64,000 nt of DNA from a virus (lineage: Duplodnaviria; Caudoviricetes), in the IMG/VR virus record IMGVR_UViG_3300020577_007160, positions 64,001 to 128,000 of that record; one strand, 5' to 3'. Within the stretch, counting starts at the first letter, position 1. Each line of letters starts with the position of its first letter. Made by a program: the position numbers and the translations under genes. A model generated the notes under the pieces. That model searched no databases, was not told the origin of the DNA, and was given only the letters and a program-made list of their open reading frames with translations. This document shows positions 1,982 to 48,548 of the stretch, one piece after another.

Positions 1982-2491
1982 TTACCAGGTAGTTGATCCA
2001 TTTACTTTAGATAAGTAAAATGCAAAACCTAAATATTCCCCTGTATAATTATCTGATTTATATTTTTCTCCATAAACATGAGAACGTCTTCCATACCAAT
2101 TACCATCGTAATCCTGTGCTAATCCATCTTCTTCGTTTTCAACAGGATCTACATAGATGTCATAACCTTCATAGGCAAAATCTTTTCCTTCATTACTGAG
2201 CTTGTCAGCGAGTTCTTCTAAATAAGAAAAAGAAACAAACCCATATTGACCAAGACCAAATGTATCAATGAATTCTTGGGTGTTGTCTGTGTAATTCTGA
2301 GGATTCAACCCAAACACTTCAAAAGCACTTTCTGGTGCTGATTTCAGTTTTTTACGAACAATAGAAACAAGGCTCGATAAACTTGCACCAGTGCTACGCT
2401 CTTCCCTAACATTTCTATTATTTCTATTAACACCAACTTTTCTTTCCAGTCTTTGTAATCTCTCATTGAGAGATAATTTTCTTTTAATCAT
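1982..2491 (-). CDS. Tagged hypothetical protein (putative capsid-packaged cargo)
   Basis: N-terminus KLSLNERLQRLERKVG...VREE; AGGAG Shine-Dalgarno (SD). Confidence 0.75.
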   Translation of the reverse strand: MIKRKLSLNERLQRLERKVGVNRNNRNVREERSTGASLSSLVSIVRKKLKSAPESAFEVFGLNPQNYTDNTQEFIDTFGLGQYGFVSFSYLEELADKLSNEGKDFAYEGYDIYVDPVENEEDGLAQDYDGNWYGRRSHVYGEKYKSDNYTGEYLGFAFYLSKVNGSTTW

Positions 2492-2499
2492 TGTTGTTC

Positions 2500-2533
2500 T
2501 CCTTTTATGAAAATTGTTAAAACTATATAACTG
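2500..2533 (-). promoter_or_regulatory. Conserved leader CAGTTATATAGTTTTA...ATAAAAGGA (putative late promoter plus SD)
   Basis: 16 bp identical to 43061-43076; variant at 17191-17205. Confidence 0.5.
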
Positions 2534-2556
2534 ATTAAAATATATATATTAACTAA

Positions 2557-3867
2557 TTAACCTTTCTCAATGTATTTAACGTTTGTCATATCTTTTATAT
2601 AATCGGGAGAAAACCCATTACCATCCAAACCAGGATTTTCACTTACAAATAGAACTCTAACTTCTTCTGGAATAAAATCAAGAGTTTTTAAATTGTTATC
2701 TTGAACACTCAATAAATCTAATTTTTTATCTTTAATCCCCTTCAAAGAAATTAAAAGATTTGATTCAAATAATAAACTTCCACCACCCACTTTTGGGCAA
2801 TGTTCTAAATTTCTTAATTTATTATTTGAAGCATTAACACCCCAACAAGTTTCTGGACATCCATAAAGAGTATCTAAATTATTATAACTAATATTCAATC
2901 TCCCCTCAATAATTCCAAATCTATCTAAACCAAATTTTGAATAAAGATACTCATGAACTGACTTATAAGACCCTAGTTTCTCCTTGAGATTAACATCCCC
3001 TGTGACGTTTATTATGTTTCCATCTAATTCAACCTTACGGCATTTAAACGTAGATGCGAGTTTTAATTCAACAGAATCTGCTAAATTAATTGGTAAATCC
3101 TCCCAAGATTCTATTGGATTTCCATCCCAGATCAATTCCCCTTTAACATTTTTAAGATCTTCTGTGTGATATTTAAAGTCTTCGATGTTATTATTGGATA
3201 TATTTAAATCCCCACCAATTTTCTTTGGCATTCCCCAAAGACTTTCTAAATTATTAAAAGAAACGTCAAAATCCCCAGTAACTTCTAAAATACATTTAAT
3301 TTTCAAAGATTTTAAATACTCGTTAATAGTTTTAAAATTCTTCAATTGACCTGAAAAATTAACATCTCCTCTGATTATTACATCCCTATTAATTAGGGTA
3401 ATTTCTCCATTAACAAATTTTTGTAAAGAATTCTTAGCATTAATATCATCAAAATTATCTTTTAAAAATTGTTTTATACCATTAAATGGTTTACCATTTA
3501 CTTTTGTCAGATAAAACAATCCCCTTTCATAGGGGGGATAATAATATTTTTTATTTCTAAATTCTCTTATTTTTAATTTTGGAGTAAAGTCACAACAAAA
3601 TCCAGAATAAGAAAATGTACCTAGTACATCCTTAATATCATTAAAAATAGTATGGCCAATAAATCTTGGGTCATCAGAATTCAACATCTCTACAATATCA
3701 TCCCCCGTAAGACGGTCATCAATATCTATTGAATCAACTTTCTCTGGGAGAGATTTATCTCTTAAATATTTTTCTATGTCAGGGATAGAGGTGAGAGATT
3801 CAGAAATAATGCCCAATTCTCTCTCAAGAATCGAAAGTCTTTCAACAATTGATTTGTTAGATTTCAT
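2557..3867 (-). CDS. Tagged LRR-like repeat protein (paralog of 7195..8529)
   Basis: SIVERLSILERELGIISES tag; repeats such as GDFDVSFNNLESLWGMP and NASNNKLRNLEHCP. Confidence 0.8.
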   Translation of the reverse strand: MKSNKSIVERLSILERELGIISESLTSIPDIEKYLRDKSLPEKVDSIDIDDRLTGDDIVEMLNSDDPRFIGHTIFNDIKDVLGTFSYSGFCCDFTPKLKIREFRNKKYYYPPYERGLFYLTKVNGKPFNGIKQFLKDNFDDINAKNSLQKFVNGEITLINRDVIIRGDVNFSGQLKNFKTINEYLKSLKIKCILEVTGDFDVSFNNLESLWGMPKKIGGDLNISNNNIEDFKYHTEDLKNVKGELIWDGNPIESWEDLPINLADSVELKLASTFKCRKVELDGNIINVTGDVNLKEKLGSYKSVHEYLYSKFGLDRFGIIEGRLNISYNNLDTLYGCPETCWGVNASNNKLRNLEHCPKVGGGSLLFESNLLISLKGIKDKKLDLLSVQDNNLKTLDFIPEEVRVLFVSENPGLDGNGFSPDYIKDMTNVKYIEKG

Positions 3868-17205: not shown

Positions 17206-17214
17206 ATATATATA

Positions 17215-18033
17215 TTACCATTTTAAATTAGAACCAAAATCAAAATAATGCCTATCTAATTTATATTTAAATTTCATTCTATCAATTATATTAAAATACT
17301 TTTGTTTTTCAGTACAAGCAGGATTAATTATATTATTCGGTTCTCCATAACTAGTCTTCATCATATAATAAACCTTTCCGAGAACTTTTTGACCAAATCT
17401 ATCAAATTTCACATTAAGAAATTCATCCAATGGAGCATTAAAATTAGAACCTTCATAGAGTTTTTCTACTTCACTTATGAAGTTCTTTGACAAACCTACC
17501 GAACGTAAATATCCAGATATAGTAACACTCTCGAATTCAGTTGGAATTGCATTGTCTCTCAAAATAATAAGAGTCTCAATTATTGATTCTAAATTCTGCA
17601 ATTCAAATGGTTCATTAAATCTTATATCTTGAAAGAATTGTTCAATGTCCCGCTTGAGTGATAATACATTAGCACTATGAATCTTGATTGGTAACGTTAC
17701 TTTTGATTCAGATAATTGATTTTTTGATTCTCTGAAATTTCGCTTATTCCAAATAATATCATAGAATTTATCAACACAATACCCTTCTGGAGAAATGCCT
17801 TCAGTTATTCCTGGAATAATTACATCTTCGTAATCTTCAAGAAGTTGAGATAAAAATGGTTCAAATTCATTTCTGGGGTCAGTACCTTCATAAAGTTTTT
17901 CTATAATTGCCTTTACCTTTTGAACATAATCAAAAGCAATATCATTATACTTCTTCATATCAGAAACAAGAAGTTTCTCTCTTTGGGAAACTTCTTGTGA
18001 ATTCAAATCAAATTCTCTTAACCGTCTTTTCAT
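17215..18033 (-). CDS. Hypothetical protein (MKRRLRE start, internal xxES sites)
   Basis: 272-aa ORF; FRES and LSES motifs. Confidence 0.7.
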   Translation of the reverse strand: MKRRLREFDLNSQEVSQREKLLVSDMKKYNDIAFDYVQKVKAIIEKLYEGTDPRNEFEPFLSQLLEDYEDVIIPGITEGISPEGYCVDKFYDIIWNKRNFRESKNQLSESKVTLPIKIHSANVLSLKRDIEQFFQDIRFNEPFELQNLESIIETLIILRDNAIPTEFESVTISGYLRSVGLSKNFISEVEKLYEGSNFNAPLDEFLNVKFDRFGQKVLGKVYYMMKTSYGEPNNIINPACTEKQKYFNIIDRMKFKYKLDRHYFDFGSNLKW

Positions 18034-18103: not shown

Positions 18104-18483
18104 TTAAGTCTCTATATCATCCTCAAATTGACTCGCATAATACCATTCTAATTCTCTTTTATTTTCCATCTTTTTTAGCCATTTATACTCTAATCCTGTG
18201 TACTTCTTTATAAATTTGGCTTCCTGATCATATAAATCAACATCTACCGCATTAATAGATTTTCCATTAATCTTTATCCACTGGTCTAATCCTAAATGAA
18301 CTATAAAAGACTTACCACGATATTTAAAAGAATATTCTGTATATCCATAACGATCATAACCTGACCCATGAGATCCATTTTTTACCTTAAAATCTAAAAA
18401 TAAATTATCATTGGATTCTCCAAGTATACATTCTTCTAATTTTTCAATACGCTCTAGAAGAGAGAGAGAGATTGGTGTTTCAT
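18104..18483 (-). pseudogene. Tagged gene frameshifted at a (CT)6 run (phase-OFF or recoded; 125 aa if one CT is removed)
   Basis: AAGGA SD, then ATG AAA CAC CAA TCT CTC TCT CTC TTC TAG. The shifted frame reads LLERIEKLEECILGES... and stays open to TAA at 18104. Confidence 0.8.
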
Positions 18484-18495
18484 TATTATTATTCC

Positions 18496-18777
18496 TTATT
18501 GTTTTATATAATGTTTATCCCTAGCAGAACTAGGAAAAGAACTTAATTTTCGTCCTATTTTATTAAAGAGTTCAACATAAACACAACCTTGTTCTTCCCA
18601 ATCAGAAAATGCTTTAGTGCTTGTATCATATTTTTTCTTTAATGGCTTCCTATCCATAAAATAGATAATAGCATAATTCCCAGAATTAGATTCGATTAGC
18701 TTACTTTCCACCCCAACTTTTCTTTCCAATCTATCTATTCTTTCCACTAAAGAAAGACTTGAATTTGAAAATTTCAT
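18496..18777 (-). CDS. Tagged hypothetical protein
   Basis: SLSLVERIDRLERKVGVESKLIES. Confidence 0.75.
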   Translation of the reverse strand: MKFSNSSLSLVERIDRLERKVGVESKLIESNSGNYAIIYFMDRKPLKKKYDTSTKAFSDWEEQGCVYVELFNKIGRKLSSFPSSARDKHYIKQ

Positions 18778-18792
18778 TCAGTACCTAAATGC

Positions 18793-41258: not shown

Positions 41259-42101
41259 TTAAAGCCCTAAGTCCATTGGCATTTCTAAAATTGAATTCGA
41301 TGAAATGCCGAGATTACTCGATGCAATATCGAATGCAAATCCAGCTGCGGATTCTAATATATTTTCCTTTACTTCCAAGTCGGAAATTGAAGATTCTAAT
41401 TTAGCCCAACGGATTCTTTGATTATCCATTTGTTCCGCGAATTGTCCATCTTCAATGACTGCGAAGTTTATTTGAGTCTCAAGATATCGTGGTGTAAGAA
41501 ACCTATTGAAATTCTTTTCAGTTACGTCGAATCCTTTTAATTTTCCTCGAAACCATCGTCTTCCGAGAATCAAATAAACATCTGGAGGTGCGAATGTACC
41601 TTGTCGTTTTTCTTGAGATTCCTGAGATATTTCTGAAGTAACAGAACTCAATAAATTTGTTGCACTGGATTCCAGGGAAGACGTCAAAGTTCCGAGGGAA
41701 ATACCCTCACCTGACGTGAATGGTGCAAGAGTATTTTTAATGAAATTTCCAGCTTCAAATACTTTTTGAAAAGGTCTAGAATTAGATGGCAATGTCAAAG
41801 TCTCAAGAATTGCCTCAATACCAAGAACTCCTAAAGACCTTCGAACTACGGAAGGACTAAGGAGTTCTGTTGCAGAAGTCTCAAACTGTAAGGTAAAATT
41901 TAATTCCTTTTGATTATTTCCACTCCAAGTTAATATTTGAGTAGGATATAATGGTGCATCCAAGGTCTCATAATTAACATCTTTTTTAACAGAAATTTCA
42001 ATAGGGTTAAATTGAAATTTCAGAGTTAATCCAATATCTGGAGCATGAAACATCCCCTTGAGAACTGAATTCCGAAGTTTTGATATTTCTTCTCCAAACA
42101 T
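41259..42101 (-). CDS. Tail tube initiator / baseplate protein
   Basis: FQFNP.EI...K...Y, PP.V.L..G, F...LTP; follows the tape measure region. Confidence 0.72.
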   Translation of the reverse strand: MFGEEISKLRNSVLKGMFHAPDIGLTLKFQFNPIEISVKKDVNYETLDAPLYPTQILTWSGNNQKELNFTLQFETSATELLSPSVVRRSLGVLGIEAILETLTLPSNSRPFQKVFEAGNFIKNTLAPFTSGEGISLGTLTSSLESSATNLLSSVTSEISQESQEKRQGTFAPPDVYLILGRRWFRGKLKGFDVTEKNFNRFLTPRYLETQINFAVIEDGQFAEQMDNQRIRWAKLESSISDLEVKENILESAAGFAFDIASSNLGISSNSILEMPMDLGL

Positions 42102-42107
42102 AAATTA

Positions 42108-42525
42108 TTAAAGTTTAAAAATTCTAGGATTAGTTACTCCAGTTATAATTTTGAATTCTTTAAGGGCTAATTCAAAAGTTTGATAATCTTCTATTAATGG
42201 CTTATTTCTTATCTTTTTTCCACTTGGAAGAGTAGTGAATCCTTTAACAGATTCTATGTGAAGAAACCATGTATCATCATTTTTATAAACTGAAGCTACT
42301 AACTCATCTCTATTAGAGACTGCAGTATAAATTACTCCGTATTCCATATCAGGATCGTGGTCTGCTTGTAAAAGATCCATTTTAGTTCCACAAATCCAAT
42401 TCAAACTAAATAAATTAAATCCACTTATTTCATTTAATCTTTTTCTTGGATTACTTTCTACAATATTTTCTAGAATTTCAAGTCTCTCAGAGAGAGAGTT
42501 TTGAACCTGTTCGTGTGTTACGCAT
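42108..42525 (-). CDS. Tagged gene requiring a +1/-2 shift at (CT)5-TGA (139 aa if restored)
   Basis: AGGAG SD, ATG 42525: MRNTRTGSKLSL*. The shifted frame reads SERLEILENIVES... and is continuous with ORF 42108..42404. Confidence 0.75.
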
Positions 42526-42543
42526 TTTATTCTCCTGTTGTGT

Positions 42544-43033
42544 CTAAATTAATTCAAAATCATAAGAATTATGATAATTCAATGGATTTTTTACAACATG
42601 TTTCATCCAACTATCTCCTGAAGTATAATTATCAGCATTGGCTCTCCAAAAAATCTGAGAATATCCATCATCATAATTTAGATAAAAGGATAAACCAGTA
42701 TTATCAAGAATTATAGTACACATTTTATTTTCCAATGAATCTTCTTCAAGATCTAATTTTTCGATTATTATTTGTTCTAATATGGAAGAGATTTTAACAT
42801 AACCGATATAAGGTTCTTGTGGTTCTCTTTTCATTTTAGTAATTCTCTCCGCACCTTCAAAAGTTCCCCAATCTTCTGGAGTAAACCTTTTGAGTTTAAT
42901 ACCATTGGAATATCTCAATACTGGAGGGCAATCGTAATTGTGTTCTTTCAAAGAACCCTTACTCTCTATGATTCTTTCTAATTTTTGAATCCGTTCAGAG
43001 AGAGAGTTTTGAACTTGTTCTTCTGTTGAGCAT
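42544..43033 (-). CDS. Tagged gene requiring a +1/-2 shift at (CT)5-TGA (163 aa if restored)
   Basis: AAAGGA SD, ATG 43033: MLNRRTSSKLSL*. The shifted frame reads SERIQKLERIIES... and is continuous with ORF 42544..42951. Confidence 0.75.
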
Positions 43034-43039
43034 TTTACG

Positions 43040-43076
43040 TCCTTTTATTTAAAATTGTATTAAAACTATATAACTG
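43040..43076 (-). promoter_or_regulatory. Conserved leader CAGTTATATAGTTTTA...ATAAAAGGA
   Basis: Identical 16-mer to 2518-2533. Confidence 0.5.
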
Positions 43077-46000
43077 TTATCGTGGCAAAGTTTCCAAACC
43101 GTACTGACGACCTTGTTCTCGACGAATAATGGTCTTGATTTCTTCTAATAATTTCTTCGCATCATAATTCGGATTAACAGAATTTATTTGAATTGACCCT
43201 GCATTGAAATTAATTGTAACAGAATTCGATGAAGAAGTATTTTTAGGACTCTTTTCTTCAGACAAACCAACAGTCTTACGAACCCCAAAAACAGTATCTG
43301 TGGGTTCAAAAAATACGGGTTCTTGTCCTGGACGCACGACGAAGTCCTTACCAGGATTAGCGGCTGACCCACGCTTGATGGATTCAGGTTCTACTGGCTC
43401 TTTTTTATTCGTAGATTTTATGAAATTATCAAGAGTTTCTGGAGTATCTTTCTTCTGTTTTTTATCTGAAATTTTAACAAACTTATCAAGATTATCTATT
43501 GATGGCTTTTCTTCCTTTTCCTTAGGAATTGCCTTCACAACTTTATTGATAGTCTCTGATATTCCTTTATTCTTATTCTCTGAAACAGAACCTTTTTCTG
43601 GTACAAAATTTGTTATTTCTTTTATTGGTTCTTTCTTCTTAGAATCCGGAGTTTCTTTGGTGGTAGTTGCGAGTTTATTTAATTCTTTCGTGGGTTCTTT
43701 TTTAGTTACAGTATCTCGATTTTCTTTCTTGTAAGAATCCGGAATAAACTTATCCATTTTCTGGGACATGGGTTCATTTGAATTCTTAATAGAAGCCAAT
43801 AATTCATCAAATTTTGGATTGGCGAATCCAATGAATTTCAAAGATTTTCCTTTATCAAATGTCCCCATACTATTTGGGAAAGTATTTCGACTGACTTTCA
43901 CGCCTTCCCTGCCTTCCCCGTCAGTGCCAGTATTTCCTTCTACTGTAGTAAATTTGCCTCCTGCCACGCTGTCTACGAGTCCTAAGTGTCCTGAGCCAAA
44001 GGAATTCTGCTTCATGAAATCTTCAAGATTATCTACTGATTTGTCCTTGCCCCATGCTACCAGTGCTCCAGGTTTTGGATTGGTCTTGCTCAATTCAAAA
44101 TATCCGGATTTTCCAGCATTGGCTAAAGTTTCTTGAGCATTGAAACTGAACACATTTTTTATCTTACTCCATACGTCAGGTAGGGACGAAAATATACCCG
44201 AATATGTTGTTTTGGCGAAAGCAGCACACCATGCCAGACCTTCACGGATTTGATCATCAGCGAGTTTCGAAATTGAATCTGAAGAATATCCAGCATATTT
44301 CTTCATCATTTTATTGAAGTTTTCATTTTCAAAACCAAGATTCCCCACTGATACTTTTTTATCGGAAGCTAATTCTGCTATTCCTTTTTCTTCTGCTTCC
44401 TTTTTTGTGAGTAGAAGATTGTTACCTTTTTTATCTGTGATATATTTTCCAGATTTGTCTTTCGCATAATATCCCTGAACTTCTTTCGATACTTCTTTTT
44501 GACCAATGAATTGTTGTGCAAAAGAAGTTAAACTACTGGTAATATTTTCTGGAGTATAATTCTTGGGTAAAAATTCTGCAACATCTTTGATTTCGTCACT
44601 TCCTGCAATTGTTTTAGCAATGCCCGCTACTGGATTCATTCCTGACGTAACAGTATTGACTACTACGTCTTTCGCCAGCCCTACTCCGGCTCTTGCTGCA
44701 TCCATGATATTACCCTTCTTTATTGATTCAATAAATCCAGGTTTTTTACTTACAATTGCTTCATCCTTTTCATTCATAGGATATACTTCACCATTTTTAA
44801 CAATGGCATCATTCACCGCTGGTTTCACTGCGGAATCCTGAAACAGCTGATTCATAGATGCTAAATTTTCCTTCATTACTTCTCCTGTGGCAGAGGATAT
44901 CCAACCAACATATTCCATGGCAGATTTTTTCTGCAACGTTGCCGCTTCTTCACCTTCAGCTTTTTTGCGACTTAAATCACTTTTTGAAAGACTCTGAATA
45001 GCAGAAACCAACTTCATTATTTCATCTAATTTAGCAGTTTTCTCTACCCCATCCTTCATTTTCCGAATATCCGGTAACTGCTTATTGACGTCATATAATT
45101 TATTCTTCATGGTTTCAAATGCCATTGAATACGCAGAACCAGCTTCAATGCCATAATCCCCAAATGATTTCATCTCATCATTCAGGTTATTTACCATAGA
45201 ACTCAGATCAGTAGATTTAGATAAATCTGCGAAAGACGAACCAATGCTCGCAACAATTGACTGAGTTTTTTCTTTTACTCCGTCATCAATAATTAACTTG
45301 GAAATATTAACATTAGGTAATTTATTCAAGACATCAATAACCATGTTTACTGTTTTCTTGAACATTCGAATCATTGGATCAAAGAATCCGTCTCCAAATA
45401 TTAATTCTCCTAAATTAACCATTGAACCAAAACCACCTGATAATAACTGTCCGATTTTAGATGGAATTGAACCAAAGAAATTCATTATGGTATCAGGTAA
45501 ATTCTTTAAATTTGTCATTACCTGATCAGACGCTTCACTGAAAGCAGCACCAAATTTTCCAGGTAATTCTGAGAAGAACTTTGTGAAAGAATTCCAGGCA
45601 TCTTTAATCCAACCAACAATTGAACCAAGAATATTCCCTAACATTGTTGAAAATGTTTTCCACAGATTTTTCAAAGAATCCCAAATGTAGGTTCCAATTG
45701 AACTGAAAATATCAACTATTAACGTCCAAATTCTCCCAAATAATGATTTAACAAAATCCCATAATGCACCAAAGATATTTTTGATATTTTCCCAAGCACC
45801 TGAAAAATCTCCAGTAAAGAGATTTTTGAACATATCAAAAATATTACCAAATACATTCCCGATTAATGCTCCAATATCTTTGAACACGCCGACAACAAAA
45901 TCAATAACTCCACTCAGAATATTTTTTATGAGAGTTATTGCATCAGAAAATCCTTGAACTAAACCACCAAGAAAATTCATAAATGGATTATCAGAACCCA

Positions 46001-48548
46001 TCAAACTCGATGCAGCATCTGACAAAAATGAAGAGATCCAGGTAAGAACTGAATTGAAAGCATTCTTAAAAGTATCCCCAATGAAGCTACCAATTGTATC
46101 AAAAATATCAAATATTTTTCCACCAGCATCCATGAAATCCCCAGAAAACAACGAAGAAAAGAATTCTCCGATTTTTCCAATGATATCCCCTGCTGCGGTG
46201 ACTGCACCTTGCAGTACGGAAATGATAGAATCCCATCCTATTTTCAAGCCAATCAAAACATTCCCCAACCATTTTAAAAATGGATTATCGGATTTCAATA
46301 ATTTATCAGCTATGCCACCAATCCAATCAGATATCCATTTCCCCAATAATCCAAGACCTTCTGATAACATTTTCCCTAATTCTGGACCAATATAAGCTAA
46401 TTGTTCTGCTACCCAAACTAAGGCATCCCAGAGCATTGATGCCAGTCGTGGAGTCCAATCAATGATTATCTGAATAGCACCAATTAATAATTTCTTCAGT
46501 ATTGGTACAATCATTTTCAACAAGCCACCAAGAGTTTTCAATAACTCAGGAAATAATGCCTGAACTTTTGCTCCAAGAGTCTTGGCAAAATTGACAATTG
46601 AATCAATGATTTTTCCTGCAGCAGCAACGACTGCTGGAATTAATTTTGGTAACTGAGAATTGAACCATTTGAAAAATCCAGTAATCAGGTCAAATGCCTT
46701 ACCTACGAATCCAGTTATTCCATCAATCAACATCGAAATTATATCTCCAAGATCTGTCACTCCTCCTGCCAGATCCCCTTTGAATAATTTCTTTATCATT
46801 GAACCAATTTTTTGACCAATGAATCCAAGGATAAATATTATAGGATAAAATATATCTCGAATTTTACCAACAATTGATTTGAAGAACTCCGTAGCACCAC
46901 CCATAGATCCTGAGACGTTCCCTAGCAACCCCCCAATGAACTTGATGACAGTTCCCATCATCGAACCGATTGCCTGCCCTACTGCTAAAATCGAGTCCTT
47001 ATTGGCTTCTATTGTATTAAATATATTTGTTAAAACATCTTGCATTGCACGGAATGCACCCGAACCCGAAATGGTTTGTTGTAATTTTTCAAAGAATCCA
47101 GATATTGAAGCAATCTGACCTTCAGTTGAGTTCTTCATCCTATCAGCATTTCCTGAGTATTGCTTGTCAAGAAAATCTGCTGTTTTTTGCATACGTTCCT
47201 GGTAGGTGCTCGCACCTGCTAATGCTTCCTGCAGTGCTGCTGGATCAATGGTGTTCCCGAAGGACTCCGTGAATGATTGAAAATCCCCACCTTTCGCCAA
47301 CGCAGTCATTGCGGACATAGTGGATTGAAGGTCTTTTCCTGGACCAGTGGCAGCGTTGAGAACTCCTTTGAAATTAACTTTATCTACGCTCAAACCCATT
47401 TCCCCCAATTCAGTGGTATAGGATTCAAGATCGTCTTTTGCTAATCCATATTGCTGGGACATATCATTGATAAATCCGGTTGCTTTTTTAGCATAGTCAG
47501 AACTACCAAAACGATTTGTCATTTTGACAGTCATTTTTTCTAATTCCTGACCAGATTTCCAAGCAGATTCGAATGCCTCTTTGATGGAGTATATTCCCCC
47601 TGCTGCACCACCAATGGCTGCTAACGGAGGAATAAGATTTGTCAAATTGAATGCTTGATCTTTTATTGTTGAGGAAACATTCTTAAATCCTGATACCATT
47701 TTACCAGAAAGATCCTGCATATTCTTAGAAATATTAGAGAGTCCTCTGCCAGCCATTTGAGCAGAAGACAATAATCCTCCTGGAATCGTTGAAAGTCCCC
47801 TGCCTAGGGATTGTGCTGTCCCCCCAATTTTCGACAAACCTGACCCAAATACGCTGCCAAAATTTGATGCTTTCTTTTGATTCTCCGTGATTTCATTTCC
47901 CATTTGAGCCAATGACAAGACTCCATTATCAAATTCATCATTCATTCTTCCTGTTTGAGCAACAACACTATCCAAAGATGAATTTAAATTATTGAGTATA
48001 TCTTCTTGTTCCTGGTTAAAATTTTGAAGACCATTATTCAGATAATCAAATCCTGCGAAGTCTTCCATGTCCTGACTCATGGAATTTACAAATTGAGACT
48101 TTGGATTATAAGCAGTGAAATCATCCAGATCATTCATAGATTCTTGTAAAGATTTTTTAATATCTTTTTGATTCTTTGAATTTAATCTATTGGCTACTTC
48201 TCCTGTTCGAGCAAAATCCGTGAATGTTTTTCCAGATTCTTTTAATTTCTTATTATACTTAGTTTGTTCTGTTTGAGAATTTTTTAATGTTTTATTAAAA
48301 TCTTCTATTTTCTTTTTATTTTTATAATGTGTAGAATATTTTTTATTTAAACCATCATATCCATGTCCAACATCATCCAAACTTTTTTTAAGATTTGAAT
48401 CAAATGTTCCAGTTGTAGTACCGAGATCTTTAACTTTTCCTATCCAATTTTGGATAGATGCAGTTATGCTCTGGATTGTTTTATTAGCAGAATCCAGAGT
48501 AGCAACATCAACACTAAAACCTAAATCTATTTTATTTGGATCTTTCAT
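43077..48548 (-). CDS. Tape measure protein with a CHAP peptidoglycan-hydrolase domain
   Basis: 1823 aa; helical W/F-periodic repeats; AWCAAF...GHLGLV...TVEGNT. Confidence 0.9.
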   Translation of the reverse strand: MKDPNKIDLGFSVDVATLDSANKTIQSITASIQNWIGKVKDLGTTTGTFDSNLKKSLDDVGHGYDGLNKKYSTHYKNKKKIEDFNKTLKNSQTEQTKYNKKLKESGKTFTDFARTGEVANRLNSKNQKDIKKSLQESMNDLDDFTAYNPKSQFVNSMSQDMEDFAGFDYLNNGLQNFNQEQEDILNNLNSSLDSVVAQTGRMNDEFDNGVLSLAQMGNEITENQKKASNFGSVFGSGLSKIGGTAQSLGRGLSTIPGGLLSSAQMAGRGLSNISKNMQDLSGKMVSGFKNVSSTIKDQAFNLTNLIPPLAAIGGAAGGIYSIKEAFESAWKSGQELEKMTVKMTNRFGSSDYAKKATGFINDMSQQYGLAKDDLESYTTELGEMGLSVDKVNFKGVLNAATGPGKDLQSTMSAMTALAKGGDFQSFTESFGNTIDPAALQEALAGASTYQERMQKTADFLDKQYSGNADRMKNSTEGQIASISGFFEKLQQTISGSGAFRAMQDVLTNIFNTIEANKDSILAVGQAIGSMMGTVIKFIGGLLGNVSGSMGGATEFFKSIVGKIRDIFYPIIFILGFIGQKIGSMIKKLFKGDLAGGVTDLGDIISMLIDGITGFVGKAFDLITGFFKWFNSQLPKLIPAVVAAAGKIIDSIVNFAKTLGAKVQALFPELLKTLGGLLKMIVPILKKLLIGAIQIIIDWTPRLASMLWDALVWVAEQLAYIGPELGKMLSEGLGLLGKWISDWIGGIADKLLKSDNPFLKWLGNVLIGLKIGWDSIISVLQGAVTAAGDIIGKIGEFFSSLFSGDFMDAGGKIFDIFDTIGSFIGDTFKNAFNSVLTWISSFLSDAASSLMGSDNPFMNFLGGLVQGFSDAITLIKNILSGVIDFVVGVFKDIGALIGNVFGNIFDMFKNLFTGDFSGAWENIKNIFGALWDFVKSLFGRIWTLIVDIFSSIGTYIWDSLKNLWKTFSTMLGNILGSIVGWIKDAWNSFTKFFSELPGKFGAAFSEASDQVMTNLKNLPDTIMNFFGSIPSKIGQLLSGGFGSMVNLGELIFGDGFFDPMIRMFKKTVNMVIDVLNKLPNVNISKLIIDDGVKEKTQSIVASIGSSFADLSKSTDLSSMVNNLNDEMKSFGDYGIEAGSAYSMAFETMKNKLYDVNKQLPDIRKMKDGVEKTAKLDEIMKLVSAIQSLSKSDLSRKKAEGEEAATLQKKSAMEYVGWISSATGEVMKENLASMNQLFQDSAVKPAVNDAIVKNGEVYPMNEKDEAIVSKKPGFIESIKKGNIMDAARAGVGLAKDVVVNTVTSGMNPVAGIAKTIAGSDEIKDVAEFLPKNYTPENITSSLTSFAQQFIGQKEVSKEVQGYYAKDKSGKYITDKKGNNLLLTKKEAEEKGIAELASDKKVSVGNLGFENENFNKMMKKYAGYSSDSISKLADDQIREGLAWCAAFAKTTYSGIFSSLPDVWSKIKNVFSFNAQETLANAGKSGYFELSKTNPKPGALVAWGKDKSVDNLEDFMKQNSFGSGHLGLVDSVAGGKFTTVEGNTGTDGEGREGVKVSRNTFPNSMGTFDKGKSLKFIGFANPKFDELLASIKNSNEPMSQKMDKFIPDSYKKENRDTVTKKEPTKELNKLATTTKETPDSKKKEPIKEITNFVPEKGSVSENKNKGISETINKVVKAIPKEKEEKPSIDNLDKFVKISDKKQKKDTPETLDNFIKSTNKKEPVEPESIKRGSAANPGKDFVVRPGQEPVFFEPTDTVFGVRKTVGLSEEKSPKNTSSSNSVTINFNAGSIQINSVNPNYDAKKLLEEIKTIIRREQGRQYGLETLPR

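Follow-up and report, generated by a model that had tools for sequence, protein, structure and literature searches.

Three small accessory genes of an uncultured T4-like phage are broken inside a short CT repeat, which in each of them lies in the coding region of an N-terminal leader, and these breaks are most likely the mark of a slippage-driven switch and not of programmed ribosomal frameshifting. We consider it probable that in all three genes, here named A, B and C, the break is a heritable slippage by one repeat unit at the DNA level, by which the gene would be turned on or off in the manner of a contingency locus. The CT tract codes for the residues L-S-L(-S) in an N-terminal leader common to at least ten small accessory genes, and of the four long tracts in this genome three stand in an OFF register, namely the (CT)5 of A, the (CT)5 of B and the (TC)6 of C. 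Translation of an OFF allele from its real start would end after 9-12 codons, so that the tagged protein would not be made, and replication slippage, by adding or removing one unit, would bring the second half of the leader and the body back into the frame of the ATG, or out of it. Each tagged gene with a long tract would act as an independent heritable on/off switch.

The window, i.e., the whole stretch of 64,000 nucleotides that was analysed, comprises bases 64001-128000 of IMGVR_UViG_3300020577_007160, a viral contig of 179,512 bp that has a GC content of 32% and direct terminal repeats and is rated complete. Nearly every gene is carried by the minus strand. The phage genome encodes a Peptidase_S77, the prohead protease of gp21 type (69.6 bits, above the cut-off), and a weak match to a gp19-type tube protein was found at the locus of one relative (L010). 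When protein databases were searched through a neighbouring gene, only distant phages of Maribacter (Flavobacteriia) were recovered, at 26% identity, and the same approach found no relatives in a collection of viral contigs (viral_contigs). GenBank phages contain no DNA match to the region of genes A and B.

Broken frames of genes A and B

Genes A and B lie next to each other on the minus strand, and a previous sequence-only reading had described their start codons, Shine-Dalgarno sequences, 12-codon leaders, (CT)5 runs, TGA stops and +1 continuation just as they are found here. In gene A, AAGGA precedes an ATG at 43033, from which a leader ORF of 12 codons (MLNRRTSSKLSL; 42995..43033) runs into a TGA (42997-42995) at the end of a (CT)5 tract (42997..43006), and the remainder of the tag (ERIQKLERIIES) and the body stay open for 150 codons in the +1 frame (42544..42996). 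As assembled this tract is out of frame, and it would be in frame at three or six units, giving 161 or 163 aa. Gene B is built in the same way, with AGGAGA before an ATG at 42525, a 12-codon leader ORF (MRNTRTGSKLSL; 42487..42525), a TGA (42489-42487) ending the (CT)5 tract (42489..42498), and a tag remainder (ERLEILENIVES) with its body that are open for 126 codons in the +1 frame (42108..42488); here three or six units would give 137 or 139 aa. Immediately after the tract the +1 frame reads SERIQKLE in A and SERLEILE in B. Reading of TGA as a sense codon in an alternative genetic code was considered and rejected, given that the next stop comes only 12 codons further on. Annotation pipelines either report such genes as truncated ORFs with a TTG start (135 and 90 aa) or overlook them, and in both cases the leader and the switch escape notice.

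The two bodies are orphans. A search for homologues among 5.8 billion proteins returned only the bodies themselves, and since A and B have no homologues, an ON allele of either has never been observed. Neither Pfam nor PHROGs had a match for any of the genes A, B and C, and the ESM Atlas offered no usable lead for gene B. Exhaustive HMMER searching of gene A produced one weak match, with 27% identity over about 60 aa, to HYR_4C Ig-like repeats; the matching region covers residues about 61-123 of the 153-aa query (window 42547-43005, minus strand), and the target is a 1798-aa surface protein of the Bacteroidota type IX secretion system (T9SS), which carries a CHU_C type IX secretion signal and repeats the similarity 12 times. 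This weak similarity hints at a Bacteroidota host and at an Ig-like fold of the gene A body. Scans of viral and metagenome collections for exact patterns of the A/B shift site and of the generic tag gave no match.

Upstream of the two genes lies a tape-measure-like gene (43077..48548, minus strand, 1823 aa), assigned by synteny and with a weak CHAP match, and downstream lies a tube-like gene (41259..42101, minus strand, 280 aa) with a weak CIS_tube match. In relatives whose tube-like protein is 68-72% identical (L010, L011, L013, L014 and L015, compared with window 42108-43076), no gene stands between the tape-measure gene and the tube-like gene, so that the two leader cassettes A and B represent an insertion specific to this lineage. 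Those relatives have variable insertions of their own, consisting of 193-aa or 414-aa genes, which come after the tube-like gene instead.

A leader shared by ten genes

A six-frame scan of the whole genome for the strong form of the leader defined a family of ten genes, which begin roughly with M-x-N-R-R-x-S-L-S-L-x-E-R-L-x-x-L-E-R-K-V-G and carry unrelated bodies behind it. Seven of the ten are in frame and the three others are A, B and C. Among the in-frame members, the gene at 1982..2491 (minus strand; MIKRKLSLNERLQRLERKVG...) encodes LSL as TTA TCT CTC and does read KLSLNER, as had been pointed out before, and the gene at 18496..18777 (minus strand; MKFSNSSLSLVERIDRLERKVG...), which stands directly upstream of gene C, uses CTT TCT TTA; a looser copy of the tag begins the in-frame gene at 2557..3867 (minus strand; MKSNKSIVERLSILE...). 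In A, B and C the ATG opens a peptide that fits the first half of the consensus (MxNRRxS.LSL), whose second half is found in another frame. The genuine starts of these three genes are therefore the ATGs, and the frame is lost within the repeat. An AGGA-type ribosome-binding site precedes the ATG in each of them.

The family has the features of a T4-type capsid-targeting leader (CTS), that is, a short leader shared by unrelated proteins, an L/I-x-E motif, and a gp21-type protease in the same genome, and the L-x-E motif sits just after the CT tract. By analogy with T4, the leader-tagged proteins are possibly loaded into the capsid.

Two further observations concern the leaders. Several leader ATGs have an exact TATATAGTTTT motif about 30-40 nt ahead of them (window 43062-43072 and 2519-2529, minus strand), among them that of gene A but not that of gene B, and the motif also precedes the tagged genes at genome positions 57504, 61895 and 63476. 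From its placement it may be a cassette promoter; no enrichment was found within the window when one mismatch was allowed. Moreover, the codons for LSL (TCTCTC or TCTTTC) are complementary to those for ER (GAGAGA or GAAAGA) and co-vary with them in some leaders, forming hairpins of 5-7 bp with a loop of 3-7 nt (e.g., L016:2474-2549, window 2434-2509 and window 18714-18789). We rejected a functional role for such a CTCTC/GAGAG hairpin, since neither A nor C has one and codon choice probably accounts for it.

Gene C and its natural alleles

The third broken gene also lies on the minus strand, where AAGGA precedes an ATG at 18483 and the leader ORF (18454..18483), which reads MKHQSLSLF, ends at a TAG (18456-18454) behind a (TC)6 tract (18460..18471). 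The remainder of its tag (L-E-R-I-E-K-L-E-E) and the body (18104..18454) are open for 116 codons in the -1/+2 frame, and the tract would be in frame at five or eight units, giving 125 or 127 aa.

When tract lengths were changed in silico, addition of one CT unit in A and B, or removal of one TC unit in C, restored a full-length protein with the consensus spacing L-S-L-x-E-R, which single-base repairs would not keep. With six units, gene A would encode 163 aa with the N-terminus ...KLSLSERIQKLE and gene B 139 aa with the N-terminus ...KLSLSERLEILE; with five units, gene C would encode 125 aa beginning with MKHQSLSLLERIEKLE. Whole-unit changes thus repair all three genes, A and B lacking one unit and C having one too many.

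The gene C locus was recovered in five samples, and its tract has five, six or nine units among them, which means that gain and loss of whole units occurs in nature. The (TC)6 of the window, out of frame, recurs in SRR32380193 (L003). In DRR685535 (L005), which is 98% identical to the window overall, the tract is (TC)5 and gene C, otherwise unchanged, is in frame with 125 aa; an exact lookup of this ON protein found it in DRR685535 only. SRR12487045 (L004) and JGI 3300010338 (L006) carry (TC)6 followed by TTAAAG, a variant context in which the gene is in frame, and SRR35672340 (L007) carries (TC)9, in frame with 127 aa. Further tract alleles were sought through neighbouring proteins and none was new, and a metagenome scan for the gene C tag returned two chance matches only, both unrelated. 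Judged from these alleles, being in frame is the normal state of gene C, and the window allele is a very recent expansion by one unit.

The alleles also bear on the possibility that the breaks are errors of sequencing or assembly, the true tracts being (CT)6, (CT)6 and (TC)5. Repeats are error-prone in some technologies and the record is a metagenome-assembled viral contig; against this, contigs from two other runs agree with the window at 100% identity, both (CT)5 tracts included, over 10.9 kb in L001 (SRR32380193) and 8.8 kb in L002 (SRR12487045), even if one of these runs may share reads with the record. Furthermore, L003 reproduces the (TC)6, the same pipeline resolves five, six and nine units elsewhere, and one long tract is in frame. 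Error is thus very improbable as an explanation. The earlier reading had likewise held it unlikely, and the identical contigs bear that out, but its control, the many A/T homopolymers that show no frameshift, is a weak one because the genome lacks any A/T run of 8 or more. The strain in SRR12487045 is not the window genome, because it has only 95% identity at locus C. L001 and L002 both stop at one base, at window position about 38755, where a 76-nt segment is found that recurs elsewhere in the window with 92% identity; a cassette element present in more than one copy, at which k-mer assembly breaks off, is the probable cause.

Gene C likewise speaks against translation of leaderless bodies, either from internal starts or by termination and reinitiation after a short leader ORF. 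TTG codons do lie 15 codons into the body of A (42951) and 28 codons into that of B (42404), with AAGGG before the former, whereas no ribosome-binding site precedes the latter, and the two parts of the tag that flank the break form one unit. In the body of gene C no in-frame ATG, GTG or TTG was found until the last ~30 codons, where fewer than 30 aa are left, and internal initiation is hence not a general answer. We regard it as the least credible of the alternatives, and the downstream TTG starts that the earlier reading had named as its possible refutation are unlikely to account for the breaks in general.

Repeat tracts in the genome

The tract starts 9, 9 and 4 codons after the ATG in A, B and C, respectively. 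In the whole genome, four CT/AG runs of at least five units were observed against 0.77 expected anywhere under a first-order Markov model, and each of the four belongs to the coding strand of a leader tag, one being in frame and three out of frame; since the leaders are paralogous, the four tracts are not independent events. The codon choice that builds them is rare. CTC makes up 7.6% of leucine codons, and the probability of CTC TCT CTC given LSL is 0.002. This is nonetheless the very encoding found in A, B and C, while the fourth tract (genome position 63476), the in-frame one at genome 63481-63490, reads CTC-TCT-CTT after ACT.

Long homopolymers of A or T, on the contrary, are missing. Not a single run of at least 8 occurs in the whole genome, where about 87 would be expected under a first-order Markov model, and runs of length 7 number 28 against 142 expected; G/C runs are as frequent as expected. 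The absence of long A/T runs suggests strong selection against mononucleotide slippage, or an effect of the polymerase or of modification. Slippery mononucleotide runs are thus strongly avoided and the CT tracts nonetheless persist. Taken together, the tracts have several features of an SSR contingency locus, namely a position in the 5′ part of the coding region, toggling of the frame by whole units, and over-representation relative to composition and codon usage; a length difference of whole units between close relatives is found at gene C, whose ON and OFF alleles are otherwise identical. Dinucleotide runs of another kind, (AT)5, occur at window 2540-2549 and 17206-17215, both of them intergenic and just upstream of the gene starts at 2491 and 17163.

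Recoding of the message as a possible alternative

The sequence-only reading had offered three mechanisms for A and B, shifty-stop ribosomal frameshifting, transcriptional slippage and DNA-level switching. The last of these gains from the five, six and nine units in gene C relatives and from the in-frame allele that is one unit shorter and otherwise identical, while the -2/+1 recoding that it preferred finds no support. Programmed recoding would have the ribosome slip (by -2 at CUC_UGA in A and B, by +2 in C), or the RNA polymerase slip on the CU repeat, such that a set fraction of the product is full-length. Such a mechanism is mechanically conceivable, in that a tRNA-Leu paired with CUC in the P site would find a perfect match 2 nt to either side, and all three genes have a stop codon after it; moreover, the bodies are intact, and a site of 20 nt (GTTCAAAACTCTCTCTCTGA) is identical between A and B and kept in both known strains. 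The identity of the shift site is as had been claimed, but it carries no weight as independent evidence, as it follows from the encoding of L-S-L-S-E. A CT-encoded L-S-L-S followed by Glu (GAR), with one unit missing, automatically reads CTC TGA, and for this reason the CTC TGA site is not independent evidence either.

Several results speak against recoding. The shifts would have to go in opposite directions, -2/+1 in A and B and +2/-1 in C. Upstream of the tract, A and B have GTTCAAAA and C has CACCAA, neither of them a stimulator of Shine-Dalgarno type. Folding of 111 nt from each tract revealed no common structure (z = -0.26 for A, -3.0 for B and +0.68 for C), and the hairpin of B lies about 50 nt downstream, which is not a functional distance (5-9 nt), and in-frame leaders fold alike; Rfam contains no match. 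Finally, the out-of-frame arrangement of gene C is not conserved, this gene being in frame in relatives. Bypassing of the T4 gene 60 type was rejected as well, since no matching landing codon would keep the tag. Known transcriptional slippage uses long homopolymers, about 9 or more A/T residues being needed, whereas the sites here are dinucleotide runs in a genome without any A/T run of 8 or more. Low-level ribosomal or transcriptional slippage on the repeat may be conceived, and nothing in these sequences points to it. All in all, we rate programmed recoding as quite improbable.

Slippage switch or decay

The slippage switch has also to be weighed against plain decay, in which A, B and C would be recent pseudogenes of dispensable cassettes, the CT run being merely their most mutable spot and the switching neither reversible nor adaptive. 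Some observations fit decay well. One is in gene C itself, where two independent samples of a lineage with 93-95% identity, L004 (L004:902-1081) and L006 (L006:831-989), share a 1-nt deletion that shortens a T4 run to T3 (ATTCTTTTA to ATTCTTTA) and cuts the gene to 59 aa despite its in-frame TC tract, which means that accessory genes also decay by ordinary mutation. A and B, moreover, are orphans and lineage-specific insertions missing from relatives. Furthermore, one third of dinucleotide-unit lengths are in frame and two thirds are out of frame, and thus three OFF tracts out of four are what unselected drift would yield. The tracts, at 5-6 units, are short, and A and B are in the same OFF state in both known strains, with which stable recoding or fixed pseudogenes would also agree. 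On the other side, none of the three bodies has lost its open frame (150, 126 and 116 codons) in a genome of 32% GC, the OFF and ON alleles of C differ by the repeat unit alone, the tract of rare leucine codons is present in four leaders and persists at 5-9 units across lineages that are 5-7% diverged, and long homopolymers have been purged from the genome whereas CT tracts have not. Decay is, in our judgement, unlikely, if the strongest competitor of the slippage switch.

Returning to the slippage switch, we infer that A and B switch as gene C does, that the switching is frequent and reversible within populations, and that the phage gains from it, for instance because lineages would differ in which of the leader-tagged and possibly capsid-loaded proteins they produce. 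A more far-reaching and only tentative proposal is that the CT tract is a selected mutability device within a portable leader, such that a cargo gene acquiring the leader by cassette recombination would acquire an independent on/off switch along with it, and a phage population would consist of lineages making, and perhaps packaging and injecting, different combinations of tagged proteins. If true, this would amount to combinatorial bet-hedging in the style of Opa and OipA in a virus whose genome otherwise purges slippery homopolymers. Should the leader serve to load proteins into the capsid, switching would change which of them are delivered alongside the DNA, a matter of relevance to the arms races between phages and host defence.

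Comparison with known systems

Programmed frameshifting at a similar site is known from RF2 (prfB), where a +1 shift takes place at CUU UGA C, and -2 frameshifting is known from arteriviruses. The breaks of A and B resemble these in that a leucine codon is followed by UGA and the body lies in the +1/-2 frame, but they differ in having neither a Shine-Dalgarno-like stimulator nor a conserved structure, in the opposite shift of gene C, and in the in-frame state of relatives. For the leader itself the likeness is to the internal proteins of T4, which have a short N-terminal capsid-targeting sequence. Like T4 CTS proteins and PeSL-type cassettes, the genes described here would combine an L-x-E leader on unrelated small proteins with a prohead protease and with cassettes that are flanked by core genes and absent from relatives. 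To our knowledge, no repeat-based switch has been described for T4 CTS genes.

Repeat-driven switching in phages has been recognised only recently. Homopolymer SSR contingency loci have been reported in agt of T2 and rIIA of T4 (Gomez, Barrick, and Waters 2025, bioRxiv 10.1101/2025.10.21.683753), and polyG tracts in Campylobacter phages (Sorensen et al. 2021, Cell Rep 35:109214, as cited in PMC10877375). Common to these loci and the present tracts are frameshifts by polymerase slippage, which are reversible in those phages, and a setting in lytic T4-type or large myoviruses, where bet-hedging has been proposed. However, the known phage loci are mononucleotide runs distributed over many genes, whereas here a dinucleotide is repeated in one portable leader.

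In bacteria, the opa genes of Neisseria, a set of about 11 paralogues, have CTCTT repeats where the leader peptide is encoded (PMC3745409). As in opa, a pyrimidine-rich repeat lies in the coding sequence of the shared leader of a multi-copy family, whose copies are independently in or out of frame, leading to combinatorial expression. The repeat is a dimer here and a pentamer in opa, the bodies are unrelated here and related in opa, and opa switches at a rate of about 1e-3. By analogy, the closest counterpart of the proposed phage CT switch is oipA of Helicobacter pylori, in which CT repeats lie in the coding region of the signal peptide and isolates have 5-9 units, genes with 6 and 9 units being ON and those with 5 units OFF (PMC6327388). 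The two share the CT unit, the position in an N-terminal leader, the range of 5-9 units, the logic by which 6 or 9 units are ON and 5 are OFF (as in A and B), and the occurrence of both states in nature. They differ in that the present case is a phage, that its leader is a hydrophilic, coiled-coil-like tag and not a Sec signal peptide, and that its switching is proposed from a comparison of sequences. What would be new in the phage is a dinucleotide repeat placed inside a shared portable leader, by which unrelated accessory genes would be switched independently of one another, as in the surface-antigen families of bacteria.
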